Source: Amphiscolops sp. MND2022
Lineage: Eukaryota
Length of the DNA: 64,000 bases
Direction: 5' to 3'
Assembly: GCA_964187785.1 (NCBI GenBank)
Contig: OZ076409.1
Location: forward strand, 53,756,001-53,820,000
Part shown: one piece after another, positions 36,342 to 64,000 of the stretch
How the letters are laid out: each line of letters begins with the position of its first letter
Numbering within the stretch: position 1 is the stretch's first letter
Made by a program: the position numbers and the translations under genes
The notes under the pieces: model-generated
Databases searched by the model: none
Seen by the model: only the letters and a program-made list of their open reading frames with translations
Told to the model about the DNA's origin: nothing

Positions 36342-36470
36342 TGTAATGGAAATCTTTGAATAATTTGTCACGTGCCATTATTATTATTGTCAAGATTGAA
36401 TAAAGTGATTCATCAACGTCAAGAGTTTCGACCCCCAATTAAAGTAAGATCATTCCAGTTTTCTTCTACA
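36342..36470 (+). repeat. BEL 5' LTR (129 bp)
   Basis: TGTAATGG...TTCTACA; 5 mismatches to 41882-42010. Confidence 0.9.
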
Positions 36471-36474
36471 TTTT

Positions 36475-36484
36475 TGGTGACCCC
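36475..36484 (+). promoter_or_regulatory. Primer-binding site, probably tRNA-Trp
   Basis: TGGTGACCCC just after the LTR matches the start of the tRNA-Trp-type PBS. Confidence 0.6.
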
Positions 36485-36498
36485 TCCGACAATTTTGA

Positions 36499-37725: not shown

Positions 37726-40700
37726 TCAACAAGTCAATCAACAACCTGCCCTCTAGGAGATGGACGACACCAAATCTTCAAATGCCCAATTTTCATCGCA
37801 CAGAGCCCGGAAGAGAGACAGATGACTACGAGAAACAGTGGTCCCTCATTTAACTGCCTGAACAAGAACCACCGCATCGCCAACTCCCCTTCAAAGAAGA
37901 ACTGCCAACATATCGACTGCAATGAACGACACAACTTTACTTCATAGAGACTTCCAGATAGCCGGTAACTCATCACACCTCACCGGAAGACAAGGATTCA
38001 GAACAAACGACAGAAATCATCCACCAGAAATTTCTCATAACAAAAGCCCAAGCCAGAAAGAAACTGCATCAGTTCACGTGACACAAAAGGAATCGACGAA
38101 TAACTGCCTTCAAAAGAATACAGAAGCCGAAAACTACAGAACAGAGACACATCAGCCAGCAGCCACTTTGCAGATTCTACCAATCAACCTGCACAATCAA
38201 CAGCGCTCTACAGCAGTGTACGCTCTACTTGACAGTGGAAGTACGTCAAGCTTCCTCACAAAGAACATAGCAGAAAAGCTGAAACTCACCCCGAAGACAA
38301 CAACGACGCTCAATATTAAAGGATTCAACGCAGCACAGACAATCAACAGTACCGTAGTTGATCTGCAAATATCTGACATCGAAAACAGAAAAACCCATAA
38401 TTGTAGAAATGTCTACGTAGTTGACAACGACCAACTGCCAACAGTCAAAGAGCACCCCAAACAGATAGCCGACAACTATGGACATCTCAGAGACATCCAA
38501 TTGCCACATCTCAGTAACCTGAACGTAGAGGCACTACTTGGATGCGACAAGTATGCTCTCATTATAGCTAGACAGCATCCTACAGACATCAGCATTCTAC
38601 ACCAACGAATGATGTCTACTTTTGCCAAACATGTGAAAACCACGAGCAACAACTGTTTGAAGATGTCAAAAAATGGTGGAACGTGGAATCTTATGGACCC
38701 AAAGCAGCAACCGAAGACCCAACGACTAACGACGAAGACAAAGCACTTGAAATACTCGCAGACACTTGCCGCAAAACAGATGACGTACGATTCGAAACAG
38801 GACTCCTCTTGAAGTCAACTGAGGAACTGCCAAACAATCGCATTTACGCTGAAAACCATTTGAAGTCCCTACGGAGGAAACTCAAAGACGACGACGACCT
38901 AGCGCAGTCTACAGAAACGAAATACAGAAAGACTTGGACAAAGGATACATAAAAGAAATCAACGAAGAACAAGAGGAACACAGCACCAAGTGGTTTCTAC
39001 CACATTATGGAATAGTTAGCCTGGCGAAACCTGGAAAGATTCGCCGCATTGCAAACGCCGCCGCTGTCTTCAATGGAACATGCCTCAACGATCATCTACT
39101 ACCTGGACCCGACCTACTGAACGACCTAGTTGGAATCATACTACGCAGTCGCGAGAAGCCAATACTCATCACCGCCAACATAGAAGGTTTTTTCATCCAA
39201 GTTGGAGTCCGAAAATAAGATCGCAAGTTCTTGCGATTTTTGTGGAACGACGGCTTCAACAAACCACCGAAGGAATTCGAATACCATAGACACATGTTTG
39301 GTGCCAGAGATTCACCCGCTTGCGCCATCTACGCTTTACAACAAGCAGCCAGAGACAACGCGGAGAACTATCCAGATGTTCTCGAAACCGTGACAACCGA
39401 CTTCTACATGGACGATTTTGTGAAATCCGTTGGATCAACCGAAGAAGCACTACAACTACATCAACGATTCAGACACGTTTTAGGAAGCCACTCCTTCAAC
39501 CTTATCAAGTGGTGTAGCAATTCCCGAGCATTCTGCAATGAACTGCATGAAAGCCTTTTAACGACCGAGAAAGACGAAATTTTCACAAAGAACAATAGAC
39601 AAAAGGTACTGGGAGTTTCCTGGTTCCCAATCACCGACATTTTTGCAGCTCATATAAACAAACACAACCCGGACATGCCCCAGAAATGGACTCAACGCAA
39701 ACTGTTAGAACTTCTTTCACGAATTTTTGACCCTGTGGGAATAACAGCACCTGTCACAATTGTCATGAAGATAAAGTTACAAGAGATATGGAGAAACGGA
39801 CAACACTGTGACGAAAAACTACCTGAAGACCTTCAACAATTCGTCAAGGAATGGACCACTAATACAGCACATTTGAATAAAATAAAGATCCCTCGATATT
39901 ACAATATGCCAACCGCTCAGCCAATAGAACTACACGTCTTCTGCTACGCCTCAACTCAGGCCCTCGCCACAGTCATTTTCATTTGATTCGCACACAAAAC
40001 AGTCTACCATACGCAATTCGTCATGGGAAAGACCAGATTCGTCCCACTGGAACCACAGACCACTCCAAAGCTGGAACTACAAGCAGCCGTCTACTCATGC
40101 CGGGTACAAAGAGCATTCATCAAAAACACGACCCTGTCAATCTCAAAGATCACACACTGGACTGACAGCACAGTTGTCTTACATTGGATTTACAACTTTA
40201 ACAACCAACAGAAAACATAAATTGCCAATCGACTACACGAAATACGACACACCACACCTATAGGTGATTGGAAATACGTACCTACAAAACACAATCCAGC
40301 CGACGAAGGAAACCGAGGAATCAAGACAACAGAACTCAAGCACTCAAAATGGATGAATGGACCAGCTTTTCTCAAGTTGCCTTAACAATTATGGCCTCGA
40401 ACTATCGAAGAAACCACACGCAGCACCCTAGAGAATATGCCGACATCAAAAACAGACGACATACAAACCTACAGCCTAATCTGCAATACACCGCATACAT
40501 TCGTGGACTACAAACGATTCTCATCGTGGAAAAGACTGCTTCGAACTACCTTCTATATTGTGAAGACAATGGATCTTGCGAAACGACGACTATCCACAGT
40601 AAAAGAACGTTATCAACGGAGTAAAGACATTCTGTTCAGAGTCACACAAAATGAAAGCTTTCCAGAAGATATCAAAGACATCCAAAGAACACAACCCGTT

Positions 40701-41881
40701 GAAGCACGCAGCAAGATTGTCAACTTCAACCCATATTTCGATCAACAAGGAACACTTCGATCACTCAGCCGACTTCAAAAAGCCCCAATCAACTCTCGGT
40801 ATGCCAAACATTACATCATACGACTCTACATACAGCATATACACGAAGATGAAGGACATGTTGGACTAGAACACATGAGAGTAAAACTGCAACAAGAACA
40901 CTGGATGACCCATTTGACAACCACACTCAAACAAATAATCTACATCTGTTTCATCTGCAAACGCCATCGACAACTACCTAATCAAACCAAAATGGGTAAC
41001 CTGCCGGAATTTAGATTCGCGAAAACACCTGCAGCTTTCGAAGACATTGGATTGGACTACTTTGTAGAAATCAATGCACCAGCCAATACATCTGCATTTT
41101 CACCTGTTTCAAAACAAGAGCAGTACACTTCGAAGTTGTTGAAGACCTGACAACGGACTCATGCTTTCTGGCGATCAGACGATTCACAAACCGACGAGGA
41201 AAACCAACAAGTATAACATCTGACAACGCGAGTACATTCCACGCAGCAGCCAAATCTTTGGACCTGGGAAAGATAGAAGAAAACCTAGGAACCCAACAAA
41301 TTGACTGGAAATTTATACCCACTGGAACGCCACATCAAGAAGAAGCTTGGGAATGTCTAATCAGAATAGCGAAGAGAATCCTCTGCTCAATGTCTGGAAC
41401 CCAAAATTGGACCCAACAGACATTCAATACCTTCATTTGCCAAGTGGAAGGAATTATGAATAGCAGACCTCTGACAAAAGCTTCAGCAGATCGCAACGAC
41501 ATAGAATGCCACACACCCAACCATTTCATCATCCCACGACGCAGCAACTTCCCAACGACAACCTTAGAAGCGAACAAACACACCGATAGACTCATTCAAC
41601 TAAATAGACAGTGAGAGTCAAATGCCAATCAATTCTGGACAAGACTCATGAAAGAGTACTTGCCGACACTGAGGCCCCAATCAAAGTGGCATACGACCAA
41701 AGATCCAATCATGAAAGGTCAAGTGGCGTGGATTCTTGAAAACAACTCGCCCAGAGGACTATGGCCCTTGGGTATGGTGACAGAAGTTTACCCAGGGTCG
41801 GACAACATTGTTCGAAAATGTAAACTCAAAACGAAAACTGGCGAAACTGTCAAGGGTGCCCACCAGTTATGTCCCCTGGAG

Positions 41882-42010
41882 TGTAATGGAAATCTTCGAA
41901 TAATTTGTCACGTGCCATTATTATTATTGTCAAGATTGAATAAAGTGATTCATCAACGTCAAGAGTTTCGATCCCCATTTAATGTAAGATCATTCCAATT
42001 TTCTTCTACA
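41882..42010 (+). repeat. BEL 3' LTR (129 bp)
   Basis: Direct repeat of 36342-36470. Confidence 0.9.
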
Positions 42011-42948
42011 AGTATATTTAAATACAATATTTCACACCCCTGGAAATGCTCTAAGTCGGAATCGCATCACTACTTTTGACGCTGAGATCTGGCTGACGAA
42101 GAGGAGCATACGACAGTACGTCTAAAGACCAAAATGAGCATGCTTGACGGGTGAATAACGTAAATGACAGACTTAGTCAGATTAGCTGTGAAAAAAATTC
42201 CCTTGCAATAGGGAAGCGAGCGAGCCACCTGTCCCTCTAGCAACCATGGGACCACGCTTCGAAATCCTCAAATCGCAGTTCGACACTGTTGTTAACAACT
42301 CTGAAAAACTTTTTGACAAGTTTCATTCATCAAATACAAATCATGCTGGTTGTGACTTCTTCTACGAGATTTCCGAACTGGAGGTTCTAGCATTACAAAG
42401 TACATATTATATTGAACTAAATTTACAAAACGTTGTCTTAGATTTTCTGAACTTAATTCCTTGTTCTTCATAAGTTTGAATTGTTCAATATTTGCTGAGC
42501 ACACCTCATTATCCCTAAATAGTTAAGCTGCCAAATGAACAAAATAAAGCTAAGAGAAACAAAGTTGTATGTGGAAAAATGTTTGTGAGTAAATACAAAC
42601 AATTTATTCACAGTTTGAAAATCAATCAGCCTTATTTAGACTTTGCCTTTAATTTATGGGAACTGACTGTGAGAACGGTTTCAACTGATAAAACTGAGAT
42701 TATTGCTTTAAATTGTGCAACCAGTGGAAGATTTATTTCAATTTGCAGGTACTGGAAATAATAAGGGAATGTCGATTTTCGGGATGCCGATTCAAGAAGG
42801 ATTACTATTTTGATATTCTCCAAACTTTGTGATATTTTGTTGTCCAAGCAATCAATTGAAATGTATAAATTTCAACTCTGATTAGAGATTAATTTCATTA
42901 CTTTGATTACAAGGATAGAGCGTCACGAATATCCTCCCAGGAACCAAA

Positions 42949-43770
42949 ATGCGATTTGATTGCTCTATATTTATATCATTAAGTACATCTTTCATCTTGC
43001 TCATCAATTTTCTGCACATATTGCCATGCAGTGGAATTATTGGAGGGCAAAAAGCCGAAAATTATCCCTTTTTCGTCCTTGTTCAGAAACTACAGCATTC
43101 TTGTGGGGGCACAATCGTATCTTCTAATGTAGTTTTGGCTTCCGCGTATTGCGTTTTCTGTAGAACCAAGAGACGCTGGTGTCAAACAACCGAAGTGCAA
43201 ATCATAGATGCTGATTTTGCGAGCGCTGATTGGATGATCAGTGCGAAGATCATTTCCGTTGATTACTTCAAAGTTCACGAACTTTATAATCCTGCCAAAA
43301 ACAACGGAATTGGTCCTTATGATATAGCTTTGATAAAACTGCAAACCAATTTCAGTTTCAGTAACTTTCCCAAATCAGCTCTGAACACCTGTCCTCTATC
43401 TGATTACTTTGAAGGCCGGTATGTGTACGGTATTGCAATAGGAATGGGCCTGGTATCCCCTAATGAATATCCAGAGCATTTGATGGAGGCGGAATTACGA
43501 CAGGATCATCTTTGTGGAAAATATTTTGGTCAACATTCCAAAGTGAACCGAATTGTTCAGACCTGCTATAGTATCCCTGGTCAATCATCTATTTGCAAAG
43601 GAGATTCGGGAGGTCCTCTTGTGTATAAGGAAAACGGCGAGACCTTGTGTTTGATTGGAATAGCTAGTTTCACTAGATCAGGATGCAACCATCCGTACTA
43701 CCCGGGTATTTTCACTCTGGCAGGGGTTTTCGAAAACTGGATACAAAAAAACTTGATCGAAATGAAGTAG
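42949..43770 (+). CDS. Secreted trypsin/chymotrypsin-family (S1A) serine protease homolog, intronless, catalytic His replaced by Tyr
   Basis: Signal peptide, IIGG, CGG, LASAYC (vs LTAAHC), DIALIKL, GDSGGPL, GIASF, YPGIFT. Confidence 0.9.
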   Translation: MRFDCSIFISLSTSFILLINFLHILPCSGIIGGQKAENYPFFVLVQKLQHSCGGTIVSSNVVLASAYCVFCRTKRRWCQTTEVQIIDADFASADWMISAKIISVDYFKVHELYNPAKNNGIGPYDIALIKLQTNFSFSNFPKSALNTCPLSDYFEGRYVYGIAIGMGLVSPNEYPEHLMEAELRQDHLCGKYFGQHSKVNRIVQTCYSIPGQSSICKGDSGGPLVYKENGETLCLIGIASFTRSGCNHPYYPGIFTLAGVFENWIQKNLIEMK

Positions 43771-47560: not shown

Positions 47561-50145
47561 TTAGTAACTCCATTCAACTTTACAAAAACTGGTTTGAATT
47601 GGACGGGCTGGGATTTTTCTTAGGATAAGTCTACATCTAAGTTCGTTCAATCTAGCTTGAGTATCTCCGATATGAGAATGATCTATAATTTCACGTCGAG
47701 TCCAAAGATTTTCTGCCGGTGCCGCAGCTTCGGGCCACGCGAACTGCAAAAAGTTAGTTGCATCTACAAACTCTGCCCACAGGCAAACTTCGCCACCAAT
47801 GAAGTTGTCCACGACAAATTTCTCAGTTGAGGATAAAAAGGAGGAAATGTCGAAATCATAATACTTTCTCCAAGTTTCACCATATGCTATGTAATTGATA
47901 TACCACGGCTGTGAAATAACCACTGCAACATTTTGGTTTTGAACTGCATCAGGAAGCGATTGCGCCACGTCGGAAATTTTTTTCCAAATATTTATAATGG
48001 AGTTTTCCGGCACAGTAGCACCCATTTCCAAAACTTCCTGCCAGAACATTATCGTCCGTTTCGGGGTCAAATTTGACACGATTTTGCCAATTCTTTCAAA
48101 AAAATTTTTGACTTCTGGTCGCAATCTGCTGAAGTGTGACATAGTTTGAGGGTACCAGCAGTCATCGCTGAACTCATCACCGCCCAAATAGAGGATCTCA
48201 TCTTTAAAAAGCTCTGCAATTTCCTGGATCAGGTTCGATAGAAATGTGAAGGTTTCGTTTCTTGTTGCATCCAGAAGTGGGCCTTGCCCCTCATCCCATC
48301 TATCATACGAACAGTCGTTGAATAGTTCGGGGTGTCCTTTCGGCAGGAATGTTGAATTACGAATTGCCACGAATAGTATTAACTTGATGCTTACAATGAA
48401 TGGTGAGAAAGGAAAAATAAGATTTAGATCTTGTAGTCAACGTGAGGATATCCTGTAGTTATTTATGCTGATTTTAAATTTTCTAGATATTCTGCAATCC
48501 TTCAATCAACTTTTCATTTTTCGTTACGTTAATTTTCCACTTGTTTTGGAAAATCGTTAAATGCTTTTAGCCTTCAGGTATTCATGTTCTGAAATAACCG
48601 CAATGTGTTACGAGGTTGAATTGAAATTTCAAGAAATTTTTCGGAATCGTAAACGGTATAATTGCAAAATACCTGCCTTTTGCCCACGACCGGGTATGGG
48701 CGGGAATATCAAGTTCTGGAATGACACGGATTCCTCTTAGTCTGGCTTCTTCAATGATCGTCCGAACGTCTTGTTGGTTGTAGATATGGGTGCGATGGTT
48801 AAAAGCCCCGAATTCACTCAATTTGGGGTACTTCAGACTCTGGAGAGGGAAACTCTGGTCATCTGTGATGTGCCAATGAAGAACGTTGAGTTTGACAGCC
48901 TCCATGGCGTCCAGATGTCTTAGAATGATCTGCATGGGAATATAGTGGCGAGACGTATCCATGAGAAAACCTCGGTGCGAGTAGGATGGGTAATCGTGGA
49001 CTTCAGTCTCGTTTATCATCAATAAAATCTAGACGAATATATTCAATTCTTTCAAATTTTTCACCAAATTTATAATAATCAATTGAATTTTTCAAAAACT
49101 TTTTTACCTCAAGGTTTTATTTTTAAAAACACTTTTTAATTTGCCAATAATTTTTGGAAATTACTGCATTTATTATTAGGCAGGACAAGCACAACTGATT
49201 TGGTTTCTGACATCACGTTTCATTAACAATAGATAACAAGGTGAACCCCTTATATAGTATACCTGATTCTGATCCGAGTAAACTAGCTGGCTGAATGTCT
49301 CTATACCCCTGAGTGCCCCCCACACCTGTTGACTGTAGAGCACTGCCATTGGCCACTGCACAGACAAATAATAGCTCTCGTCCATCTGCGAGTGAGGGTA
49401 GCTTACGTCACAGCCCTCCTCCATGGCGACCACCAATCGGTCGAGAACTGGAAACGAGGGGTAATGCATATTGCCATTACCCTGATCTTGGATCACTTTT
49501 TGATGGCGTTTAAAACTTTGGGTGAGAATTTGGCAATCTAATCAGGTAGATTCTTAATCATTTGAGTTTCTCTTGAAAGAGGTATAAAGATGAGGAATGG
49601 ACATATCAAATGCTAATATCTTCGCAAAAATATGTTAGGACTCATTTATTTGCAGTGCTTTCGTCTTGAGCTCAAGAATTATGTAGGAGAGAAAGGTAAT
49701 GGTAGAAAAAGTGTGAAACAACTGTAACATGAAACCTATGGTGTAAAGAGGCAAACTTGGTCAGCCAAGAGTTTTTTGAGCCAGAGAATGAAAAAAAATC
49801 AACAAACATCAGCGGCTTCTCTGTAAATTTAGAAAAAAATTGAAATTGAAACATCTTGAGTACTCCAACTGAATTGTACTTTAAAATGGGAAACTTGATT
49901 TTCCCAAAGAATCTACCTTTTCCATTGCTGGTTTTATCTAGCAAATTGCTATCAAGTTTCCATTTAAACTTGCTGGTAATCTGCAAAACTTTTCGTGATG
50001 CATTCACAAATTGTGGGCGTGGCCAAATTTTTCCATTGGTTTGGGGTATTGCATGAGGAACATAGGCGTAGCTAGTTGTTCTCCATAGCAAAAGCAAACC
50101 AAGCAGTGTAACCCAAAAGTTTAACGAACCCGAAAATTTGCCCAT
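47561..50145 (-). CDS. Beta-hexosaminidase (GH20, HexA/HexB-like); exons ~50145-49917, 49537-49263, 49028-48677, 48336-47561
   Basis: Signal peptide, IWPRPQ, DESYYL, WGALRGIETFSQL, HRGFLMDTSRHY, NVLHWHITDDQSFP, RGIRVIPELDIPAHT, GGDE catalytic pair, GGEVCLWAE, WP.AAA.AE.LW. The first two GT-AG introns join in phase; the third junction is ambiguous. Confidence 0.92.
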
Positions 50146-51669
50146 TGTATGGAGTAATCGTCACGTGAATAAACGGGGCAAACAAGTGTAAATAATGACG
50201 AACAACCTGAACTCTTGTTGTTTCACACTGCTTTGGGTTTTACCAAGGAGCTGTTAATTGCCGGCGAAGCATGTAGAATGTTTGCTGAAATCAGAAACAA
50301 CAATTACTGGGTCAACTACAAAGTTAATTTATCAAACTCGAAAGGTGGCTAACAATGAAGAAAGAGTTGAGGTACTTGTGCTAATAAATGCAGTCTAAAG
50401 TACCCTTATAACATTTCGGTCAAAATGGTTTGAAACGTAGCCTGCACAAGATTGAAGAAATTGACTATTCTATTCTTGATGACCATTTACTAGGAGCCAA
50501 GTCAAATAGAACAATCGTAACAACTTTTGCTCGAATCTACTTCGTCAGTAGTTGAAGATCTACATATCCACGGATATCTAATTCTGGTTCTGAGCACGTC
50601 ACCAACCGCTTTATTGTACGAGAGTTGGATAAATTTAACGTTTCAAAGTTCTGTCAGATCAATTAAGTCCTTAATAATAAGCTTAAACTATGATTTGAGT
50701 GAGGCACACAGTACGATACAATATTTGAAGTTTTCGAAATGACTAATTCGAATCCGCAATAATCATAGCCATCAAGTTGCTTCAGCTGTTCCCTATAGCG
50801 GCAAAACATGAAATGCAGAACAGCGTTTCAGGTTTTCATCGTTCTTTTTTCTCTCTCTCTCTCTATCGACAAGTTTCAAATTTACATGTATTACAATGTG
50901 TCGCAGGCTGTCGCCTGTGACGGCAACCTTTACCAAATCACATTGGAAGGAGACAACTCTAATCCTCCTCCAGGAGTACTCCCTATTTAAAGACTGCCAA
51001 GCACCAAAAAGTAATATAAACTGCATGTATTTTGTTATTATTCTTATTACTTTTAATTTCACCGTAAAAGACTCAAGGTCTATACGGCCTCAGTACAATT
51101 AATAATTTTAGTTTACAAGGATGAATTTAATCATTTAGTAGTTCATCCTGTGCCTGTTTTATTATTGGAATGTTAATGCAATTTGACAAATGAATGTAAA
51201 ATCAATGATATAATGAAATGCAATTGTATGCGAAAGAGGAAACGTGTTCAAATGAGCGCTTCTTCTAGTAGTTTGTACTTGCTGTACAAGTATTTTAATC
51301 CAATCAGAACGCAGTATATTAGTGACGCTCCGTGGACAGAATGTCTGCCACGGTGGAATTAGCGCGAGAGTGCTGTTAGTGCTGTGTTTGAGTGTGGCCA
51401 CGCGGACTTAAAGTCCGCTACGGTGAAATACTGCGATAACATCAAAATATGCATTCTGAATACATGTAGTGTTGTAGATTAGTATTGAATGTACTTACAG
51501 GTCACTGTTGATATTTTCCTACTTTGTCGGCTTGACCATAAGATCCCCCATGCTTTTCTTTGATGCAATGACGTCATCGTGATGTATGTTAATATGATGC
51601 TATTTTTAGTTTGTCATATCTATATTTAGTAACATGACGCGCAATTTTTGTGCTGTCATCTCCTCCCGA

Positions 51670-51678
51670 CTATAAATA
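51670..51678 (+). promoter_or_regulatory. TATA-box candidate upstream of gag
   Basis: TATAAATAG about 165 nt upstream of the gag ATG. Confidence 0.45.
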
Positions 51679-51834
51679 GGGAGAGGACTAAATCCAAAGG
51701 GACAATCTTTCGATAAACTGAACTACAAACAAGTTGATAAATTCGACCAATTGATATTGTGCTTGTTTTAACCGTTTCATACGCTTGTACTATTCGTTCT
51801 TCAATTCAATATTACTTGTACTAATATTTCTTCA

Positions 51835-53588
51835 ATGCCATCTACAAGGAAGCAAAAGGCAAAGGAGAGACGCTCTAGACAACTAGACATCATGTCTGAT
51901 GTAGAAAATGTTGATGTAATGTTAGGAAATTATTCAACAATTAATCAAGATGATGACCGTAGCGAAACTGAGATAAATTTGGACTCTGAGTCAAGTAGGC
52001 CTCAATGTGCCTCTAATCTAACTGGGGAAGACTTTAGGTCATTACTTACAAACAGTAGAGAAAACAGTGAGATCACGATTCCGACGAATAGACTGATAAA
52101 TGAGGAAATTTCAAACCAAGTGTCTAGGAGATTAAATGAAATCAAAACCAGTTTAAATTCCCAAATTCAAAATGCTATTACTGCTGCAATAACTGATACA
52201 GTGCTTCCTTCTATACAGAATGTGTTAGAAATGCAGGGGAGACCAAATTTCACCGTGGTAGACCGGGCGTCCAACGGGCCTCATCCTGGCCCAAGGACAG
52301 GTAATTCCACCGTGGAGGACCAAAGGTCCAGTGGGCGACAGCGGAACCCCGAAGTAGGAAATTCTCAGAAATCATGGGAAAATTGTCCCAAAACCTGTTT
52401 TACGCAGGAAAAATGTGGACAGAGGTCTAGAGAAAGTTCAGTGGATTCTTATACGGATGAACAAAATCGCGACATGGTGACAGGAGCCAACCTTACCCCC
52501 CATATGGTTCCTGAGTTTCTCACTGGACGGCACATGCAATACCGTGAACCCCTGCAGCGTCAAAACGCTAATGCAGACGAATCTTTGGACCATTCCCCAC
52601 AGGTCCAGGAACCTGCAAGCCAAACTATCCCTTCAGACCCCGTCAACCGTCTTGCTGAAGTATTAGTTGGCATGAACAACCGTCCCTCAGCATAAACGCT
52701 GATGGTACGCCCCGTCAGCACAACTACACTGACGTTTGACGGCAAATCTGAGAATTTCGAACTTTTCGAAGATCTTTTTCACACAATGATAAAAATGCAA
52801 CCTGATATGACAGAAACAATGAAAATAAACCATTTTCATTCACTGTTACGCAAGAATGCGTTACAAACTTTCCGTAACATCAATACGGCAAACAGGCAAA
52901 CCTTGGAGGACATCTTGGCAGTATTTCGCCGAAAATACGTCAAACCTGAGTCCCAGGCGACCGCCAAACACAAATGGCACAGATTGGTGTTTGATCCAAA
53001 CACCATGAAATTGCCAGACTTCCTTGAGGAGTTAAATCAAGGAGCTGAAAAAGCGTTTGGTGAGAACGCCCAGGCCATGATTGACAGTCTTCTTTATGCC
53101 AAATTGCCACCAAAATTGAAACGCTACGTCAATATGGCTAGACTTGAAAATGCCACCTACGAGGAAATAGTCACCCACTTGGAGCGAGAGCTTGAGCTTA
53201 ATGGACTCGAGGAGGGGGACGACATTCCAGTACCAACAATGTCCACTGCCCCGTACAGCAACACGACCGGGAACTGGCCTTCTTTCTTCTGGCATCGATC
53301 CCAACATTACCTGCAACTATTGCAAGAAACCGGGACATGTCAATGACGACTGCCGAAAACTCAAAAGAAAGGATGGACAACGCCGCAATGACGGGCAGGT
53401 TACCAAGAAAGAGTATCCAAAATGTCCAACTTGCGACAAAACGAACCACCCGGCGGAACGATGTTGGAAAGGCGCTGGAGCCCACCTCAAGCCCAAAACC
53501 CGACACTACCGCCGATGATACGTCCACCAGCAAAGACGATGCAAAAAATACACAACCGACCTCCATTTTGAAAAACCCAAAAAACTAG
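51835..53588 (+). pseudogene. gag: Gag with two CCHC zinc knuckles, disrupted
   Basis: FDGKSENFELFEDLF capsid core; CNYCKKPGHVNDDC and CPTCDKTNHPAERC. Stop at 52693 and frameshifts at ~53250 and ~53500. Confidence 0.85.
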
Positions 53589-53719
53589 ATTCGCCACGAC
53601 TCCAATTTAATGAAAAACTCCGTGTTCGACGATACATAATATCTGACCCTTCAAACGTCTACTACACCGAATATTATACCTCTCTTAAAGAAACACCATC
53701 AGCTGACTGGCAGCAGCAG

Positions 53720-56700
53720 ATGAAAATTCTACCTAAATTCTCAACCACTTTGGACCCCATGTCCAACAGACTACAACATGATACTATTACTATACGACTT
53801 ATACCTCTCATTGATGACTATAACCCATACTACTCCGATCCTGACTATGGTTTTGACCCTTATTGGGACGCTAATTCCTACAATCAACATCATCTATACT
53901 TTTACCGTAAGTTTAACAAACCAAGCCACAACATAGAACCAGAGTCCTATGACATTGACCAAGCCTTGAATGTGGCCCTTGTGAAAGCCCGAGTTGACCC
54001 TTGGCAAAAGGAAACACTACCAAGATACCAAATGACTCACAAAGGGCCTGACACCGAATTTCACCGTGTGGGACCACAAGTCTCTCTGGCTACAGCAGTT
54101 GCCGCGCGTTTCGTGGACACTCTAATCACAAGAACTGGCGAACCAGACTATGTACCGCTGACAACCAATCTTGGCCTTAAAGACAAACGACGAATGCTCT
54201 ACTTTCCGATGGATTTTGGCGAACTAACATTAGATGGCCTTGTAGACACAGGAGCTCTATCTAGCGCAATCCCAGAAGCTGATCTACGTAAAATCCGATT
54301 ACTAGCCCCTCAGTCTATTGTCAAAGAGGGCCCGGCTCCCAACTTCCAAATTATGGTTGCTAATGGGCAGCTGGAAACTCCGAAGAGCACAGTCGAGCTG
54401 AAGTTTGAAGTTGGCGACATAGAATTCCACGAGATATTCATAGTTATGGAAAAACTTACTAGCCCTTTGATTGGTCTTTCCTTCCTGCAAAGGAATAACA
54501 CCATTCTGGACATGAGACAAGGTGTCCTGAATTTCCCTTTCTTTTCAATGCAATTGAAAACTGCCGACCACAAGTACACTAACGTCATGGAACCCATCTG
54601 CATTAGTGAGGATGTAACCATCCCACCTAATGACCGACACACGGTCCAGCTGGCCTCACAACTGTACGAAGACACTACAGTTACTGGGATCCTTCAGCCA
54701 AGCAACACGATTACAGATGATGGCGATATTGCCTTCTGTGCTGCTCTAGTCACCCTGACCAATGGTCAGGTATCGGTTCATCTGAACAATTTCACTGACA
54801 GTCCGTATACCCTCAAAAGGGGCACACAGGTAGCTACTTTCACTGTTCTAACACCTGAACAGATGAAATATGTTAAACCTATAGACCCGGTGACCACATG
54901 GCACCTCCTCCAGGCTAACCCTGAGAATGCTGCTTACTACGCAAGCAGCTTGATCAAATCTACAAAACCTGAGGACTTCAAGGAGAACTACTGGTTTCCC
55001 ACACCAGAAGACCCTGGGGACTCTCAGCATCACACGCCCATACAGGAAAGGATTTTGTCAGAACTAATCAACCTTCAAGATTTAGAGAAACTTAACCCTC
55101 AAGACGACCCTGAGTCCAGACGGAAATTCTTGTCCAATTTTGACTGGACAGACTCTATGCTACAACCAGCTGAATTAGCTCGCATAGAAGATTTACTTGT
55201 CGAATTCCACGACATATTCGCAAGACACCGATTCGACATAGGCATGAACGAGGACTTCAAGGTCAAATTAACGCCGAAAGGCGATTCCCCAGCCTATAGT
55301 CAAAGTTTGCCGACACCGATAAACCTCAAGGAAGATATCCTTGTGGAAGTGGCACTATTACACCGTTACGGGATCATTACAACACTCCCATTCTCCAAAT
55401 ACGCAAGCCCAATATTTGCCCAGAAGAAACCCAATGGCAAACTGCGACTTTTAGTTGATCTACGGAAGATAAACAATCTCATTTCCGATGAATATATCAA
55501 TAACAACCACCCCGTGAGCACTCTCACAGACGCAGCCCAACACATGGCCGGGAAAAAGCTATTTTGCAAACTGGACTGCTCGCAAGCATATCATTGCTTA
55601 CTGATGGCTGACCAACGGTCCATCGAAATGCTTGCCTTCAACTTTGCTAGCAGGACCTTCGCATACAGAAGATTAGCACAAGGACTTAGTCGAGCCCTAT
55701 CGGCCTTTTCCAGCTTCATGCGTGAATATTTGGACAAAGTCATAAAAGCTGATCAATGTGCCCAATACCTTGATGGTATTGGCATCGCCGCCAACGATGC
55801 CGAACAACTTATTACCAACCTTAGGGCTACGTTTCAATGCATTCAACAAGCTGGTCTCAAACTTACAATGCATAAATGCCTTTTTGGAGCAACCAAAAAT
55901 TGACTTTCTGGGACGTACCATCACTCCTGCTGGAGTGAAGCCACAGAGACCACGAGTCCAAAATTTCCTGGAAAATACGAAATTCCCGAAATCAAAGAAA
56001 GCACTTCAACGATACTTGGGATCCTTAAACTACTATAGAAATTACATCCCAAGGCTTTCCGAAAAACTAACACCGTTTTTCAAACTCGTTACTGAAGATG
56101 AAAAAGTCCTGGTAACACCGGACCTCTTGGAAAAATCCACCGAGATAAACAAGGCTCTTGACCGATGTTGCGAACTGGCACTCAAACAGCCCTTACCGAA
56201 CAAGCAAATAGCCCTTATGACGGATGCCAGCTTTTCGGCCGCAGGGTACGCAGTTCTCATCGAGGACGATCCACTCGAGAAATACACTTCCACAAGGAAA
56301 GCTTTCGCACCAGTAGCCTATGGATCCAAGACCTTTAGTCCAGCCCAACTGAAAATATCCATCTACGCCAAGGAATTCCTAGCAATTTTCTTTGCCTTCA
56401 AAGAGTTTGGAAATATCTTTTGGGGAACCTTAAAACCGGTGATTATACTCACTGACAACAAATCCGTCACACGATTTTTTCAGACGAAAATCATTCCGCC
56501 AACACTATGGAACGCATGTGACTATGTCATTCAGTTCAATTTCACAATTGCCCATATCTCTGGCAAAAACAATACTGCCGCTGACTACTTGTCCCGTCTC
56601 GAAATCTCTCCAAGAGAAACTGATCATCAGAATCAGAGAAGAAATTCCAACAACGCCGATTGAACTACACGTCCAATCAGCAGGAGTGTCTGAAGAGGAG

Positions 56701-58181
56701 CAAATTTTCTATACGGAGGTTGACGAAGAAACAGAAGAACAGATTTTACAACGTAAAAAGGCAGCTAGAGACCATCCAGCAAACCAATTACCTGATATTT
56801 CATTCGAAAATTCACTACACACAAAAGTGATTATCACAAACTTTCAACATTTCAAAAATTATCCTACGCGAACTCTATAGTAGTAGAACAAAACAACGAC
56901 GTCATTCTGCAACAATTACGCCTAAAAATACTGAAAGAAAGCTACTGAGAGACTATCTTGCTGCAAGACCACCGCTACCAACATTATTGTCGCCAAATGG
57001 ACCGACTGTCCGTTACGGATGAAATTATTACCAGACAGTTTTTTGACGAAACAGGAGCTGTCAAATACAATCAAGTGCTCTTACCCAAACATCTGGTCCA
57101 AGAACTACTTGAATCTCTACACGGCAAAGCCAATAAGCACCCGGGAATATCCAAGATGCTCATCGAAATTCGCCAAAAATATTATCCCGGCATTGCAAAA
57201 ATTGTTAAAAAATGGGTTCAGGGCTGTGAAATTTGCATCAAAGATAAAAAAATCCCAAACCCATTGATAACGCCTGAACTGCTAAATTTACCCGAATGGG
57301 ACTTAGGCCCAGAAGACGCAATACAAATAGATTTATTACCGAACCTACCCCCAAGTGGTACACAAATACTACTGGACTCGACAAAGAAAAACATCATGCA
57401 ATCCTATTTAAAGTACAAGGAATATTACGACCGAAAGGCCAAAGCGGCCCCTTTAAAACAGAACGATTATTGTTTTATACTACAACCTCTTGCTGATCAC
57501 CAAGGATCGAAAATTCCGTTCCGCGAATATCGATGGACAGGACCCTATATTGTCGAGAAGGTCCTACCGAATGAAAACTACATAGTTAGAAAACTCAATT
57601 CCAATAAAACACAAATTCTACACCGTATCAGACTACGCAAATACGAACCGAACATCGTCCTAGAGGAGGTCAGCCCGGAAGGCAATTTGCATCCGGACGA
57701 CGAAATTATTATCCCACAGGATGACCTCTACGTTATCACTTGGGAAACTAATTTTGAAGAATTTCCCAATATCACCGAAGAAAACACAATTCCTACGCGC
57801 CGAGAAGCTCTAGACACTTCTAATGATTACGTCAATGAAGACAGTGCGCCGGACGAAATTTTCATCGACGTGGACATTAGGTCCACCGGGCCTCAAGAAA
57901 TTGACGCCAGAGCGCCAGACGAGATTTTCACCGACGTGGACCTTGGGTCCACCGGGCCTCACGAAAATGATGACTTTGATTCGCTTGAAAAGATCCGCTC
58001 AGAACGCTTAAATGACACGTCTGACGACCAAAAATCGCCAGGAGGGAGCGATACTATCGTGCCCGTAGTATTAGACGATGAAAATGATGTTATGATTGTA
58101 GAAAATGAAAGCCCTAGGGGAGGGAAATATAACCTTCGACCTAACCCCAACCCCAACTTCACTGATGAATACAGATACTAG
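53720..58181 (+). pseudogene. pol: Pol (PR-RT-RNase H-IN); RT motif mutated and integrase core deleted
   Basis: LVDTGA; SPIFAQKKPNGKLRLLVDLR; QYLDG in place of YxDD; TDASF, YAKEFLAI, TDNK; HPG..CEIC; W.GPY; terminal KYNLRP. Several frameshifts and stops. Confidence 0.92.
57845..57965 (+). repeat. 66-bp in-frame tandem duplication in the pol C-terminus
   Basis: APDEIFIDVDIRSTGP / APDEIFTDVDLGSTGP; each unit carries a GTGGAC-N5-GTCCAC palindrome. Confidence 0.85.
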
Positions 58182-58349
58182 TCAGATATTTAAATTACTG
58201 TCTTGTGCTTGAGCAATGATAATATCTTTTAGGGACATGACTGACTACTAAACTGAAAACTACGAACGACATCAAACAACAAATGGATAAACATAAATAA
58301 ACTGAATAAAATAAAGACTGTTTATCATCTGCAAGTATGTATTAGACAT

Positions 58350-61300
58350 TTAGAGCTTAGTGGGACTCCCACTCGAATGACTTCTTCGCTCGACCGAACT
58401 TCCTCTCGATGCTGATCGGCCCTGACGCTTGGTAGACTTAATGTCTCGGGACTTTTTTGGCGATTTCCCAGAACCTTGAGGATCAACACTAGCACACATG
58501 GTGACTTTGCGCTGCCCAGCAGATTGAGAATTGATGCAGTCTTGAATTGCAGCGCGATTGAATCGATCCATTTCGTCCCAAGGACAATAGGTACTGCTGA
58601 GCCCAGTACCCCCAAATGTCTTTTCCAGGGCCAGAAAACGGGCAGTAGAACCTTCGGAGACAAGTGTGTCCAGTCCACGAGCGACGTTGCTGAGATAAGA
58701 CTGAATAGGAGCGACAATGTCAAACATCACACTTGTGGGTTCGTCAGTCTTGTTAGAACCAAATCTAACAAGTGCAAACGTAAACCTGGGCTCATCAAGG
58801 CAGAGACAGCTAAGACGGAAAATCCTCGTCAGATGTACTCGAGACTTTAAGGCAGGTTGCTTAGACACGAAGTCAATAGTATCAGCAATTAGCAGTTTAG
58901 GTTGTTGCATCTCAGGATGAGTGCGTCTCAACTCGTCAATGAACGAAAGGTACTCTTCAATGTAGACAGTTTCCTCCTCGGACTGAAAGACACCTAGTCG
59001 GAAACTAGAGAACAGGTTCTTGAAACAATATGCAGCTTGCTCCATAGTGTCTAGAAACAGAGTCTCTAGTTCGAAGGAGCCTAACCCTTTGACGATTTCT
59101 GAAGTGAATATGGTGAGTCCAGTAGCTGCTCCGAAAAGATGCACCACATACCCACGGGCTTGTCTACCAAATTCCTCGCGATAATTGGCAATTATTTCCT
59201 CAAGGCTCAGTTCACTATGTTTTGCTTCCATTCGTTCCTTCTCGGATTTACGTTTGCAGCAAGCTTCCAGTCGGGGTCCCAGTTTTAAGCGGGATATAAA
59301 ATCAGTGACTGTGAGGGCTTTTGCATCTGGAATGGAGATCCGAAGTATGTCATGGTAGTCAGCTTCGGACGGCAGGCAACTGGGTCGAATGCACCGCTGG
59401 GCAAGTTTGTGCAAATATTGGCCGAACTCGTTGTGGACATGAAAACCTCGATCACGTCTCGTCTTGAGATTGAGGATGAAACTGCTGGAATCTAAAGAGT
59501 ACAACCATGAACTCAGGAAAGCAGACAGTCACTACAACACACGTTTTACCACTTACAATCGCGGAAAAATCGACAGAACAAGTCCAATCGACAGGGAAAG
59601 AGGTCATGATAAACTATGGACCATTCCAGGTTCTGTGGCTGAAATGATTACGGATTTAAACTAAACAGGACTCAAGGTCATCTAAGGCATACAAGGACAA
59701 TATCTATTACCTCGTTTCGAACTCCTTGTTTTTCTTGGAGTGAGGCGTGCTTGGAAAGGTATCCTACCATATTTGACCAATTGTCCAGCAATTCCTGGCA
59801 CAGTGCAGGGAGTCCACTGACATCAAGTTGACTTGTCTTGATGGCCTAAAACAGTATATCTATAATAAGCTCAATAGCACAAAACGGTACACGAAAAAAA
59901 ACGCTCATACTTTTGGAAACTACGAGTCATTACTTGGCAAAGTGAAGTTATTTACCTTGGTTAGTTCAGGAGACAACAACACCCAGTCCAGTTCTGAGCT
60001 GCCCCCAAGCGAGATGACAAGGTAGCGCAGTACGGAGAAGAAGTCTAGGCGTCCAAAGACACTCTGGCTTTTCTTGTGCATCAAGGTTGAAAGGTTCAGC
60101 TCTTCGAAACGAGGGGTACTCTGCACTCCACGAGGACTGTATGGACTCTGATCAATCAATTGCACTGTACGGGCGCTACTTCCAGTACAATTAACTAGGC
60201 GCGGTCTAGTTGAGATTGCTCCCATGATGTACGAGATTAGGCACACTTCAGCCTGAGTCTGGCCCTGTACCTGCCCGGTCCGTTTGAGAAACACCCGACA
60301 CAGTTGATCCCCGTGCCAGAATCTGACAAAGGACAGGAGGAAAACACCATCAATAGCAAATTCCACTGCGTATTCTCCTGACGAATTGATCTGAGTTCCA
60401 AGGTCCTCAACAAGTTCAAGAAACATGTGGTGGAACAAGACCTAAACACAAAATCGATTGATTAGTCCCAGGAGATACTAAGTGTAAGCACTTTAACGGA
60501 GGTCGTAAATAGAGAATATGAAATAATTGTGGTTACTCACACTGATTCTTTCCTTCCCCCAGTTGAAATCCATGAACAGGGATTGGTGATTGACTATGAC
60601 CCCGACGTCACTCCAGAAGCTTTTCAGAACCTCAAGGTCACCGTGGGTAGGAAGGAACTTGGCCACTACGGACAATTGGACTCGGGCACGATTTTCTGAC
60701 GAAGAAGACATATAACCCGTCCCTGCCATGAATTCATCGTAAAATGGTAGCTTTTGGCCAATTTCAACTAGCGGTGCATCTTTGAAATAAAGCAATTCCA
60801 ATTCCAACTGGTATGGCGAAAGCAGTTTACCATCTCTACCTCGGACTTGGTAGATTTTTGTCTTGGTAACTGGATCAACTTTGTAGAGATACTCGTATCG
60901 CCACCTTTGATCCTTGCGTAAGTGTTTTCCGGAGGAATGATGACGCAAGATTTCCCGTGCTCCCTTGCCATAGATAGAGATGTTGGCCTTACAGATCTGA
61001 CAGTAGAACTTGTAAGGGTTCCACCGTTGGTCCACTGGACCTGACACGAATGTTCGGGTCCATTCCATTCCCCTGAAGTAAGCTTCCTTCATTATTTTAC
61101 ACAACCTTGTGATTTGCCTGCGGGTCCCCTTGCCCCGGGAACTGGAAGTGAACCTCCCACGCTGGTTACGAGGAAGCTTACCCTGGTCTTTCATCGCTTC
61201 GGCCTTTAAGGAAGCAAGTGTTTGGGCGTCAGGACTATCAGCAGCTGTCAATGGGGTGTTGATCCCTCGGTCCGCATAGCTACATGACGCTCCCTCAGAA

Positions 61301-62876
61301 GCTTTTGGCGGGGCAATTATTGTCTCAGTCTCTGGCCTTTCGTAAAAGTAACCAATGCTGGAGAACTCATTATCACTTTGGAGGGCTCCACTTGTGTCGC
61401 TGAGTTGACCAGGCGTCGCGACCTTTGGTATTGTCTGCCATCCAAAGACTTAGGGGTAGCCATGTTGCTTGTAGTGGCTTCTAATGTGAGTCTCCTTGTT
61501 TGTTGGATGATCCCTTCTAACATGTCTTGGGAGGCCCTCACAGTTTCATCCGCGACAATTTTAATGACGCTGCTCAACTGATCTTCAGTAAACGCAATGA
61601 CTGGGTGTCCCTGGGGAAAGTTGAAGGGTTCATTAGTTTGGAAGTGTTCTTTAATGAGTGCCCTGCTAGTCGGTTTAAGACTTTGACTTCTAGAAACTAC
61701 GGGTAGGCCAACAGTGGTAAACGCACTTTCAGCATCACTTGAATCGACATTAAGCTGTCGGGACTTCAAGTCCATAGCCTGTGCAATTGTAGAGCCAGCT
61801 GAGTTAAAGGAAGACTAAGCGTCAGTTTCAACTGCAGGTTCACTACTGTTCACCGTGTCAGTCCGATCGTCTTTGTGGCCTGTTTCGACATTCGAGTCCG
61901 AGTCGGTCTCTTCATCACTCATGGTACGAAACGGAGTTGGAGCTCTTTGTTTGGCTGGAGGACGACTTTCATGAAAAGATGTACTCCCTATTCTTGGGCG
62001 TTTGCTTGCACCCTGAGTACGTTCTGTTTCCGCTTGAGAACTGCCCCCATGCTCTGGTCCTAGGAACGAAACTTTAGGTCCTGCGGGACCTTGTTCAGTT
62101 GGGCTTAATTGAGAGCTGGAGGAAGGAATCATTACAGGAGGTTCACTCTCACTCGCTTTTACAGTATCGATGGCCCCCACTAAAGCCTCTTGTTTCCGTA
62201 AATCTTCAAGACTGCCAATTTTGCGGGTCAAATACGGCTGAATGCTTCCTCCAGAGCTACTATTCCCAAACGCAAATGGATTGATTACGGAAGGGGTGTA
62301 ATCTGGGGACGGTGGTCGCGGAGTCTGTTGACTAACGGCAGGAGTGGAAGAATCGGCACTTCTTGCAGCGGGATCTTGTTCAGATGAAGCCTGTGATCCG
62401 CTTCCCTCAATAATCTCTATGGCGGTGGGTAAAATGCTAGGAGAAGTTGGAGTCGAAGTTGTCTGCTTGGAAGTAGAAGTTGCTTCCTCCACAGTTGCTG
62501 GACTACTGGTCTGCGCAGCCTCATCAGGGCGTTGAGTCAGATTGTTTTCTCTGATGCTCTCATTGTTCGTGGACGTCTGGATCGCTTGACCGTTTGATTC
62601 AGTTCCTGAATTGAAAGGAATAAATTCGCGCGGTTCACTTCCTGCAAATGAATCTATCTTGCCGCATTTGAAAAATCTTCCGGAAGTAAAGTTCAACTCA
62701 TTCAACTTAGTTTGAAAACATTTCACGATGAAGGAAGTACTATTAGTCGAACCTAATCCCTGATCAAGTTTAGTAAGACAAAATGAAAGAACCAACCTGA
62801 TGTTATTTCCATGATGGAAAACAGAATTGTTGTCCCGAACGTCGTTTGGAAATGTTGGGCTGAAGAATACGCTCAA
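58350..62876 (-). pseudogene. Spliced antisense gene: S/T/P-rich N-terminus, BED-type zinc finger and degenerate hAT-transposase-like body; a few disablements in this copy
   Basis: KFYCQICKANISI..KG..EILRHHSSGKH finger. GT-AG introns at 60540-60442, 59910-59846, 59710-59661 and 59556-59492. The first two join in frame; exon 59660-59557 needs a 1-nt shift. In-frame TAG at 61815 and 59920; one frameshift in the ~61250-61450 region. Confidence 0.7.
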
Positions 62877-63807
62877 GAACCTGACTCAATCCTTCTGCAG
62901 GCCCGTGATATTCAATGCCAGATCAGTGTGTCTGCTCAACTGTATGGTACTCAGGAATATAAAATTCTTTGATGCGAAGAATTACAAATCGTGGTAATAA
63001 TCAATTTGAGTATAGGAGACGAAAAGGGACGAAAATTTCTGGAACACAGACACAGGACATACATTATAATATAATAACATTATTTACACTTACCGACCAC
63101 TCTAGACTTAGAAACAACGTACGCGTAGTACAAAACGCAAGACGGTTAATTACTTATTTTATACATGGACGTCGTGGCCTAATATTTGGTTCTTACATCT
63201 ATAACTATGTACAATTCGTCTAATGTACTCTCACTATTATTATTTAGCCAAGATCTCCCTCATCGTGGATTGAACCTGCCAGTGAAATTCATGCCTTTAT
63301 TTCATTTTAGGGATTAGTTCATTTCGTAAATTAGTGTTAGTTTAATTGAAATCGCCATTTTGCTTGATTTCCATCAATTTTATTATTCTTTTATTTCTAA
63401 CACCTCATTGGTCACTTAAATTGATGTGGCCATGCGGACTGAAGGTCTTTGATGGTGAATTTGTTTATCGACAGTTAACCTGAGTTACCACTTATTACAC
63501 CTATTCACTGCTATCAAGTGGTTAGGTAAACAACTAGAAGGTCCTTCAAGAACCTATTAACATGAAGTTTACGTTAGTTGCCATTTCGGGAAATTGGGTA
63601 AAACCTACATATATGGAATGTTTGGTAAAGATTTAGGAAAGATCAGAAGCTGCTACCCCGCCGGGAAAATTCCGCGAAAAGGGAAAGACCGGCAGTCCAA
63701 GCGACCAGAAGAAAAATCATTCATCACAAATTGAAAAGCGTAAAACAGTCGAGTAAAGAAACCTCAAAATTGCGAAGAAAATTTTTCTTAGTAGAGTTCG
63801 AAACAGA

Positions 63808-64000
63808 ATGGAAATGAATCTACCATTCCATCTAGACGACCTCTCAGCTCTTCCAGTCAGTCCTAGTTACTACTCTTCTGATGAAGAAATGGATGTGGAC
63901 ATTCATTCAGTCAGTGCTAACCGAGACGAAGCTGAAGATAGTGATATAGAAGTGATCGCGTGTTACCGGCAAGTACCAATTCAGACAGAGGGACTAGTTG
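63808..64000 (+). CDS. Start of an acidic ORF of unknown function, truncated by the window edge
   Basis: ATG at 63808 is open to the end: MEMNLPFHLDDLSALPVSPSYYSSDEEMDVDIHSVSANRDEAEDSDIEVIACYRQ... Confidence 0.45.
   Translation, partial: MEMNLPFHLDDLSALPVSPSYYSSDEEMDVDIHSVSANRDEAEDSDIEVIACYRQVPIQTEGLV

Follow-up and report, generated by a model that had tools for sequence, protein, structure and literature searches.

A spaced dyad confined to a Gypsy element and its family

What maintains a short spaced palindrome throughout a single retrotransposon, and which protein might read it? The question is raised by a Gypsy element in a 64,000-nucleotide stretch of Amphiscolops sp. MND2022 DNA (contig OZ076409.1), referred to here as the window, for which an earlier note had listed GAC-N5-GTC dyads. 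All 25 of its coordinates carry the motif (7/7 for the perfect GGAC-N5-GTCC and 18/18 for the GAC-N5-GTC core). Its estimate of about 25 sites was too low, eight having been missed (51886, 54516, 54757, 56330, 58435, 58864, 59775 and 61599), and the total is 33.

Mono- to tetranucleotide-preserving shuffles of the 50.9-63.8 kb block (300 each) gave means of 2.2–3.4 sites, i.e. about 3, with a maximum of 10, compared with the 33 observed; for the seven perfect sites, shuffle means were 0.1–0.3. The spacer is fixed at 5, as had been claimed: other spacers between k=0 and k=12 yield 1–7 sites each within this block. GAC-N5-GTC itself occurs 5 times in the first 50.9 kb of the window. Twenty-three of the 33 dyads lie within nine tested ORFs, with spacers and flanks that vary between sites, and this number survives synonymous codon shuffling (4.8 ± 2.0, maximum 11 in 1000 shuffles). 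Of these 23 coding dyads, 14 read D-x-x-S; the amino-acid sequence does not account for the excess. Among all spaced trimer pairs in the element, GAC-N5-GTC ranks first (z=16); it is outside the top 12 pairs of the window's other Gypsy and of its BEL element.

Nine further dyads are found past the window end, in the ORF3 region and the 3' LTR, so that in the extended sequence the whole element contains 42 sites, compared to one site in 40 kb outside it. Their density is roughly even over the element, both LTRs included, and in 5/5 full-length copies the dyads end sharply at the LTR boundaries. Outer half-sites are often present, giving GYC-N5-GAC-N5-GTC-N5-GRC: among 153 distinct sites, offset -8 has GCC 26 times (3.2 expected) and GTC 29 times (5.1 expected). 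Genome-wide, the 8-mer occurs 29,624 times, against 7,316 for the reversed control. When the first 50 listed genomic sites were inspected, 23 belonged to family elements or pieces of LTR and the other 27 lay elsewhere (4.04 Mb), a rate outside family elements of 6.7 per Mb for this sample (control, 6.9 per Mb). A host-wide motif was rejected on this basis, and the dyads are element-confined. The 6-mer is identical to the AhdI/Eam1105I restriction site; since a Pfam scan found no nuclease or methylase domain in the element, we treat this match as a coincidence.

Structure of the element and of its antisense gene

In this 1.07-Gb genome the Gypsy family of the element numbers thousands of copies. 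The element is a Ty3/Gypsy LTR retrotransposon: its Pfam matches follow the order gag, protease-RT-RNase H-integrase, its 5' LTR and its 3' LTR (extended coordinates 64538-66114) share 98.8% identity, and a 5-bp target-site duplication flanks it (Table 1). The region that the earlier note took for a leader is the 5' LTR; gag starts inside it. About 500 bp of the integrase core are absent here and present in other copies. The non-coding stretch that separates the antisense gene from ORF3 is likely a bidirectional promoter.

Table 1. Features of the Gypsy element in window coordinates.
Feature	Position	Strand	Basis
GAC-N5-GTC array, 33 dyads (7 perfect GGAC-N5-GTCC)	51070..63697	.	motif counts
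5' LTR, 1577 bp, TG...CA ends; 9 dyads and gag start	50898..52474	+	sequence comparison
Primer-binding-site position, starts TGG, directly after LTR	52475..52492	+	position
gag region, several broken frames in this copy	51772..53588	+	Retrotrans_gag, DUF1759
pol: protease, dUTPase-like stretch, RT, RNase H, integrase; frameshifted	53519..58181	+	Pfam
Antisense gene, last exon: all-helical domain	58350..59491	-	structure model
Two predicted GT-AG introns, ~59846-59955 and 59492-59710, flanking a small exon	59492..59955	-	approximate boundaries
Antisense gene, exon 2: RNase-H fold, conserved catalytic Asp residues absent	59956..60441	-	
Predicted intron 1 (GT-AG)	60442..60540	-	sequence alone
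Antisense gene, exon 1: low-complexity long N-terminus, BED-type finger, helices	60541..62690	-	
BED-type zinc finger W...CxxC...H...H	60880..61090	-	pattern and structure model, pLDDT about 90-98
Non-coding stretch between divergent antisense gene and ORF3; dyads 63437 and 63687	62700..63810	.	
ORF3 5' part, acidic protein; continues past window up to 3' LTR	63811..64000	+	

The antisense gene is present in all clades and is under purifying selection (dN 0.03–0.40, with dS saturated or above 1.4). In this copy exon 1 is broken by a stop at 61815-61817 and a frame change near 61320-61450; in many other copies it is open over 680–920 codons. The dyad at 59669 lies within a predicted intron. The recognition helix of the finger reads G-A-R-E-I-L-R-H in the window's clade; Pfam zf-BED did not match the finger, and C2H2-like matches were below cut-off only.

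The earlier note had called this gene BED-finger/hAT-like. A BED-type finger pattern with a confident model is supported, as is a weakly hAT-like RNase-H-fold body; the hAT link found no support at the sequence-profile level. The RNase-H fold occupies model residues 250–340, and the best Foldseek match is Hermes (E 0.009); this fold is common to many unrelated proteins. The last exon aligns with Hermes 369-582 over 152 residues (Z 4.2, rank 41); it has no confident fold match and no usable one in the Atlas. For the antisense gene, Atlas DUF659 clusters at 0.76 are a lead only. hhalign against one host hAT returned a probability of 0.1–0.2, i.e. no profile match, a PDB profile search of the antisense protein gave no match, and a DUF4371 search had no match anywhere in the genome and carries no weight. 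The modelled hAT resemblance is therefore weak. The RNase-H strands contain no conserved Asp, and by manual mapping the V-T-D-N motif of the host hAT corresponds to C/S-[TS]-G-[SC]; the catalytic acids have apparently been lost. Exon 2 has 189 relatives at E<=0.001, unnamed ENA proteins wherever a source is shown, and no longer relative, covering the product in full, came up in protein searches, a weak negative. Pfam scans of antisense blocks found no TRP28 (PF04195) at E<=0.05-0.1.

The dyads are under selection as double-stranded DNA

The dyads are conserved at synonymous and non-coding positions and turn over between subfamilies. Their core bases are 92–98% identical between copies whose overall identity is 75–94%, and at six non-coding dyads core identity is 94–97% against a background of 62–84%. 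One diverged copy has kept 27/42 sites and has 42 private sites; overall, 385 sites represent 162 distinct contexts, with counts that stay steady while positions shift. In clade A, D-x-x-S codons complete a dyad in 108/163 cases (30.7 expected) and 37/46 (7.5 expected), versus 14/110 in clade B (14.4 expected) and 5/29 (3.4 expected) and 2/21 (2.6 expected) in clade C. Codon constraint was rejected from the synonymous shuffles and this clade-B control. RNA hairpins were rejected as well: the 162 distinct sites show neither flank covariation nor G-U bias, and the non-pairing variant GCC-N5-GTC is tolerated (2.6-fold). The dyads are under selection, and, as the earlier note had inferred, their symmetry is that of double-stranded DNA and not of RNA stems.

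Related clades carry different dyads

Each clade bears its own dyad type, an observation that is new here. Four types are found among related clades: GAC-N5-GTC, G[AC]C-N6-G[GT]C, GCCG-N4-CGGC-type and CG-N9-CG. Clade A has 14–28 GAC-N5-GTC per 10 kb (18/18 loci), clade B has 0–3 GAC-N5-GTC and 5–18 CCG-N5-GGC (18/18 loci), and clade C has 51–93 CG-N9-CG, about 23 being expected (7/7 loci); two degraded clade-B loci (L043 and L087) and five loci whose stretch holds no intact finger (L128, L132, L133, L135 and L137) were left out of these grouped counts. The clade-C excess survives synonymous shuffling in 7/7 loci. The B motif is weaker, with 2–8 sites observed in long ORFs versus 2.0–2.9 in synonymous shuffles, and exceeds the shuffle maximum in only 1/4 loci. 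Dyad density is raised in the LTRs of several A2 and B elements. B-type sites in A2 elements were considered as a recombinant relic, which is unproven: when A2 elements were painted with A, B and C references, no clean recombination breakpoints appeared.

According to the available text (PMC10368747), BED domains of Hermes pair up on a quasi-palindrome and bind it through residues around S66/N67/R70. By manual mapping, the residue equivalent to S66 is R/K in 24/24 A/A2 fingers and hydrophobic in 16/16 B fingers; one clade-C finger also has R. Two loci, L134 and L136, have 29 and 18 G[AC]C-N6-G[GT]C per 10 kb and only 3 GAC-N5-GTC; they share the helix type of the window's element but differ in dyad, so that helix type by itself is no predictor of the motif. 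The graded dyad series (N5 to N6, GAC to GCC) parallels the antisense-gene tree. At the level of clades the RT tree matches the finger tree, so that motif and finger are tied by common descent, and A versus B versus C amounts to only two to three independent contrasts; no clean gene swap was found.

A candidate self-recognition system and its alternatives

We propose that the dyads are a self-recognition barcode, read by the element's own antisense protein, that keeps the element active; from comparative sequence data we give this reading a probability of a little under one half (about 0.47). That the antisense protein is the reader seems probable, and, given binding, we lean with some reserve towards an activating effect. 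The antisense gene would encode a catalytically dead, transposase-like protein that may oligomerise (a homodimer prediction on model residues 135–345, run with no alignment, scored 0.00 and speaks neither for nor against this), and in the oligomer BED-type fingers would sit on GAC/GTC half-sites that alternate in orientation at 8-bp spacing. Selection would seed about 40 sites element-wide via synonymous positions in gag, pol and the accessory gene, and the protein would coat copies of its own clade and not those of other clades. Its most likely purpose would be that the integrated element stays transcribable against histone- or small-RNA-based silencing. On host chromosomes DNMT2-like methylases were the only ones found, with no DNMT1/3, and there is little CpG decay, none of it strong; demethylation is therefore an unlikely mechanism, and the host probably lacks CpG methylation. 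ORF3, which in relatives is about 270–280 aa long with SUMO-interaction-like motifs and CxxC, is possibly a partner of the antisense protein. Drift of the finger and dimer geometry would entail drift of the barcode through the four dyad types. It is possible, if doubtful, that an animal Gypsy lineage thus acquired a dead DNA-transposase gene and made of it a clade-private anti-silencing system; equally doubtful is its full version, in which a BED-finger oligomer and a SUMO-binding partner would block methylation-independent heterochromatin, with at least four co-diverged codes in one genome.

Host factors might instead read the dyads, either because each clade adopted sites of a distinct host transcription factor or because a host silencing protein shapes the sites. 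Motif-finger agreement may reflect shared ancestry only, a direct link to the element's protein being absent, and host BED/hAT proteins exist (at least 129 DUF659 matches over cut-off among the 149 listed). However, in the sample of sites inspected the 8-mer is at control rate outside elements, a graded series along the gene tree needs one drifting reader and not unrelated factors, and sites bound by a silencer would be expected to disappear, not to accumulate; we consider host readers unlikely. The same protein could also act with opposite or neutral sign, as a repressor, copy-number brake or insulator on copies of its own clade, and all the self-recognition evidence fits this equally. Transposon self-restraint is common, according to the text available (PMC6719617), ZBED6, a transposon-derived BED protein, is described as a repressor in the part of the literature at hand, and SUMO-binding motifs could recruit silencing instead of opposing it. 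Selection of about 40 sites, synonymous ones among them, in each of many expanding subfamilies is nevertheless easier to understand as a cis benefit to each copy, which makes a brake, if anything, a shade more unlikely than host readers.

A role on unintegrated double-stranded cDNA, which the protein would coat from end to end, in nuclear entry, protection or the blocking of self-integration, with little chromatin role, would suit sites that act as dsDNA and cover both LTRs, and a protein body that resembles a transposase scaffold. We judge it quite unlikely, because the raised LTR density in several A2 and B elements suits promoter control and a spliced antisense transcript would have no obvious route into the particle. 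A reader among the element's other proteins, ORF3 or the gag N-terminus encoded in the LTR, is improbable. Every clade examined has both, their divergence parallels that of the clades, and CxxC-G is present in 89/112 ORF3 relatives (unnamed ENA proteins wherever a source is shown), but ORF3 is an acidic, low-complexity protein without a Pfam match, and a recognisable DNA-binding module is seen in the antisense product alone. Chance, codon constraint, RNA hairpins or neutral inheritance from a single ancestor could draw on the D-x-x-S readings and on the shared ancestry of the copies; against the shuffles and clade-B control, the absent covariation and tolerated GCC-N5-GTC, and the 162 contexts whose counts hold despite changed positions, they are highly improbable.

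Relation to known systems

Foamy-virus Tas and HTLV Tax/HBZ are element-encoded regulators of their own transcription, sometimes antisense, that use few promoter sites, whereas here about 40 sites span the element.

The analogy with VANC proteins of VANDAL elements (Arabidopsis Mutator-like DNA transposons; PMC5735166), drawn in the earlier note, holds in part. As far as the available text describes them, both systems have an element-encoded accessory gene, conserved here, and a short motif accumulated in its own family, with different motifs in related families. However, VANC motifs are non-coding tandem repeats (PMC5735166), whereas the present sites are spaced palindromic dyads dispersed by point mutation, mostly in coding DNA, of a Gypsy retrotransposon from a probable animal. 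The proteins are also unrelated, VANC resembling MAIN in the text available (PMC13547354), and there is little sign here of host CpG methylation.

With Hermes and other hAT transposases, as the available text presents them (PMC10368747), the antisense protein shares the predicted order of finger, helices, RNase-H fold and helical domain and, as proposed here, paired fingers on a palindrome, as on BED-bound subterminal repeats. In contrast to Hermes, the catalytic acids are apparently gone, the intron-bearing gene is antisense within an LTR element, sites span the whole element and not its ends, and there is no profile-level similarity. Domesticated hAT-derived binders (CGGBP1-like, ZBED; PMC8097297), in the parts of that study available, likewise reuse a finger and dimerisation region as a sequence-specific binder and have fast-changing motifs, often CGG/CGC-containing (compare clades B and C). 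These are host genes, whereas the present gene was taken up by another mobile element, has multiplied with it to thousands of copies, and seems to evolve together with sites in the element that carries it. The plant Retand/Grande Gypsy elements, according to the text available (PMC11963269), similarly carry, between pol and the 3' LTR, an antisense ORF that is conserved and predicted to be DNA-binding, but with another domain (TRP28) and with tandem repeats, no cognate dispersed motif being described there. In the literature covered (main texts, with few subscription papers or Repbase reports), we found no paper on this Gypsy family and none on an LTR element in which a BED/hAT gene is paired with a cognate motif.

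A 2019 review, in its available text, counts only three TE-encoded anti-silencing mechanisms, all of plants (PMC6719617). If true, our proposal would extend anti-silencing to a second kingdom, to a different class of transposon and, probably, to a host that lacks CpG methylation. The finger/site pairs form a natural series for the study of protein-DNA co-evolution, and clade-specific dyads at synonymous sites suggest a cheap screen for LTR elements with antisense ORFs of little-known function. In this genome, such a system would help to account for the growth of one family to thousands of copies.

A fixed-spacing dyad accumulates in the second Gypsy element

The second Gypsy element of the window, 15.2 kb long and flanked by a 5-bp target-site duplication, has gag and pol followed by an antisense gene (three GT-AG introns predicted), then the plus-strand acidic ORF3 and the 3′ LTR. 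Disruptions affect gag, pol and the antisense gene of the window copy. Long open frames persist in many other copies, and exact matches to patterns derived from the antisense finger and from RT number 2,348 and 3,830 genome-wide. The gag frame starts within the LTR (window 51772-52474; L011:1412-2114 in another sampled locus), so that ~210 gag codons are present in both LTRs, and in relatives the C-terminal end of ORF3 overlaps the 5′ end of the 3′ LTR. A weak dUTPase-like match lies between protease and RT (window 53519-55903, pol residues ~360-444; E 0.002, below cut-off). Some copies bear large internal tandem duplications (loci L016-L018; G000:C1:48737515-48740328), one of which, in the C3 copy (8.4 kb, 99.5% identity), yields three LTRs; at L137:3081-6997, a different retroelement is inserted within pol of a family copy in reverse orientation. 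The intron-bearing hexosaminidase and trypsin genes of the window, together with its BEL/Pao element, suggest an animal host, given the taxonomic range of BEL/Pao.

Features of the window, with both LTRs of the second Gypsy element
Feature	Position	Strand	Remarks
Tandem array	1240-2455		~180-bp, non-coding
Dispersed repeats	within 1-15300		60-220-bp, non-coding
Tandem repeats	14733-14976 and 33931-34189		19-20-bp, non-coding; mutually inverted; flank first Gypsy
First Gypsy	15310-33713		270-bp terminal repeats, 99% identity
Fusion glycoprotein ORF, first Gypsy	27900-29684		Monjiviricetes-type
Further ORFs, first Gypsy	30103-32395		without assignment
Broken BEL/Pao element	34300-42100		Peptidase_A17, DUF1759
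Upstream ORF in BEL/Pao element	34448-35308		weak U1-type zinc finger match
Host trypsin-like protease gene	42919-43770	+	
Host beta-hexosaminidase gene	47561-50160	-	intron-bearing; starts ~750 bp from 5′ LTR
5′ LTR, second Gypsy	50898-52474		1577 bp
3′ LTR, second Gypsy	64538-66114		1577 bp; beyond window; 98.8% identity between LTRs

The 25 GAC-N5-GTC sites listed in the earlier note were all found at their positions (25/25), and eight further ones bring the block to 33. This excess is specific to the 5-nt spacer, as other spacer lengths yield just 1-7 sites each, and it exceeds composition: shuffles keeping up to tetranucleotides average 2.2-3.4 sites (maximum 10, n=300). Codon constraint does not account for it either, with 23 coding dyads observed against 4.8 under synonymous codon shuffling, and the dyad is absent from the top pairs of the window's other Gypsy and BEL elements. 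The first Gypsy has CTC-N9-GAG eight times (1.2 expected; two inside the terminal repeats), which is marginal after multiple testing.

In five full-length copies the sites stop at the LTRs. The perfect GGAC-N5-GTCC occurs 29,624 times in the whole genome, compared to 7,316 for the reversed control; among the first 50 matches listed, the 27 outside family elements match the control rate (manual tally). D-x-x-S codons of clade A, the Gypsy branch including the window element, have the dyad completed by synonymous bases in 108/163 and 37/46 cases (expected 30.7 and 7.5); those of the related clades B and C complete it at chance level. Conservation of the core bases exceeds that of spacers and background, both within and outside coding DNA; dyad positions change between copies and the count holds near 40. 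The dyad pattern is real, selected and clade-specific.

As the earlier note had supposed, the signal is best read as double-stranded DNA rather than RNA stems, because the flanks display neither covariation nor G-U bias. At 8 bp outward from the dyad, additional half-sites (GCC or GTC) show a 6- to 8-fold enrichment, which suggests that an oligomer may sit on an array of alternating half-sites.

Related clades carry different dyads

The adjacent Gypsy 10 kb downstream, with ~70% pol identity and the same antisense gene, has no GAC-N5-GTC, and contains GCC-N6-GGC 11 times (1.1 expected). Clades were sampled through the finger and RT patterns. GAC-N5-GTC is present at 14-28 per 10 kb in clade A (18 loci) and at 0-3 in clade B (18 loci), where CCG-N5-GGC, a degenerate GCCG-N4-CGGC, reaches 5-18; the outgroup, clade C (7 loci), has CG-N9-CG (51-93 versus ~23 expected). 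The clade C excess persists under synonymous shuffling in 7/7 loci; that of clade B is weaker in long ORFs, exceeding the shuffle maximum in 1/4. Group A2 (6 loci), modestly supported as the sister of B in a tree of the last exon, is intermediate: N5 is favoured in three loci and G[AC]C-N6-G[GT]C occurs in L134 and L136, with L078 mixed. An A2-type element, L158 (G000:C1:2851345-2867001), has six perfect GGAC-N5-GTCC in each LTR of ~1.5 kb. CG-N9-CG lies under the synonymous-shuffle expectation in 3/4 clade-A loci (window, L025 and L026: 8 vs 16.9, 11 vs 15.4 and 7 vs 17.1); avoidance of another clade's barcode is possible, though weakly indicated.

The antisense protein is a candidate reader

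The earlier note nominated the BED-finger/hAT-like gene. The BED-type finger is modelled confidently, followed by helices, an RNase-H fold and a helical domain. The top Foldseek match is the Hermes transposase at an E of only 0.009, the Atlas gives a lead to DUF659 clusters at 0.76, and profile comparison with one host hAT gave no match; we therefore go no further than calling it hAT-like. Manual mapping found no conserved catalytic aspartates, and the gene is under strong purifying selection. In ORF3, a SUMO-interaction-like motif lies beside acidic residues in 73/112 relatives (raw count by a loose pattern, uncorrected for chance).

A pair of BED domains in Hermes contacts a quasi-palindrome via the helix N-terminus (PMC10368747). 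The residue mapped manually to Hermes S66 is basic in 24/24 A/A2 fingers and hydrophobic in 16/16 B fingers, a single phylogenetic contrast. L134 and L136 show that dyad spacing is not set by the helix. The specificity of hAT-derived binders shifts fast, with a frequent preference for CGG/CGC (PMC8097297). The antisense protein is likely a self-recognition factor (probability about 0.7).

What would be opposed by such a factor?

CpG transitions are 1.5-fold up between two full copies (97/1041 vs 325/5308), near background in seven closer copy comparisons, and not elevated in other repeats (6/66 vs 56/412 and 5/75 vs 32/214). Both methylase matches on the chromosomes have DNMT2-like motifs; DNMT1/3 were not found on the chromosomes by an exon-by-exon search, which does not prove absence. 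With little CpG decay and only DNMT2-like matches, demethylation in the style of VANC, the Arabidopsis VANDAL anti-silencing protein, appears unlikely. The analogy to VANC drawn in the earlier note holds in its logic (PMC5735166), but the two systems differ in the class of transposon, the protein, the geometry of the motif, its position in coding DNA and probably the silencing mark. Antisense ORFs for which no function is known also occur in the Retand elements of plants (PMC11963269). The literature searched, of incomplete coverage, yielded no published description of the present system. Opposition to histone- or piRNA-based silencing would fit better than demethylation, as would plain transactivation, and our best guess, at slightly under even odds, is that the candidate reader would activate its own element.
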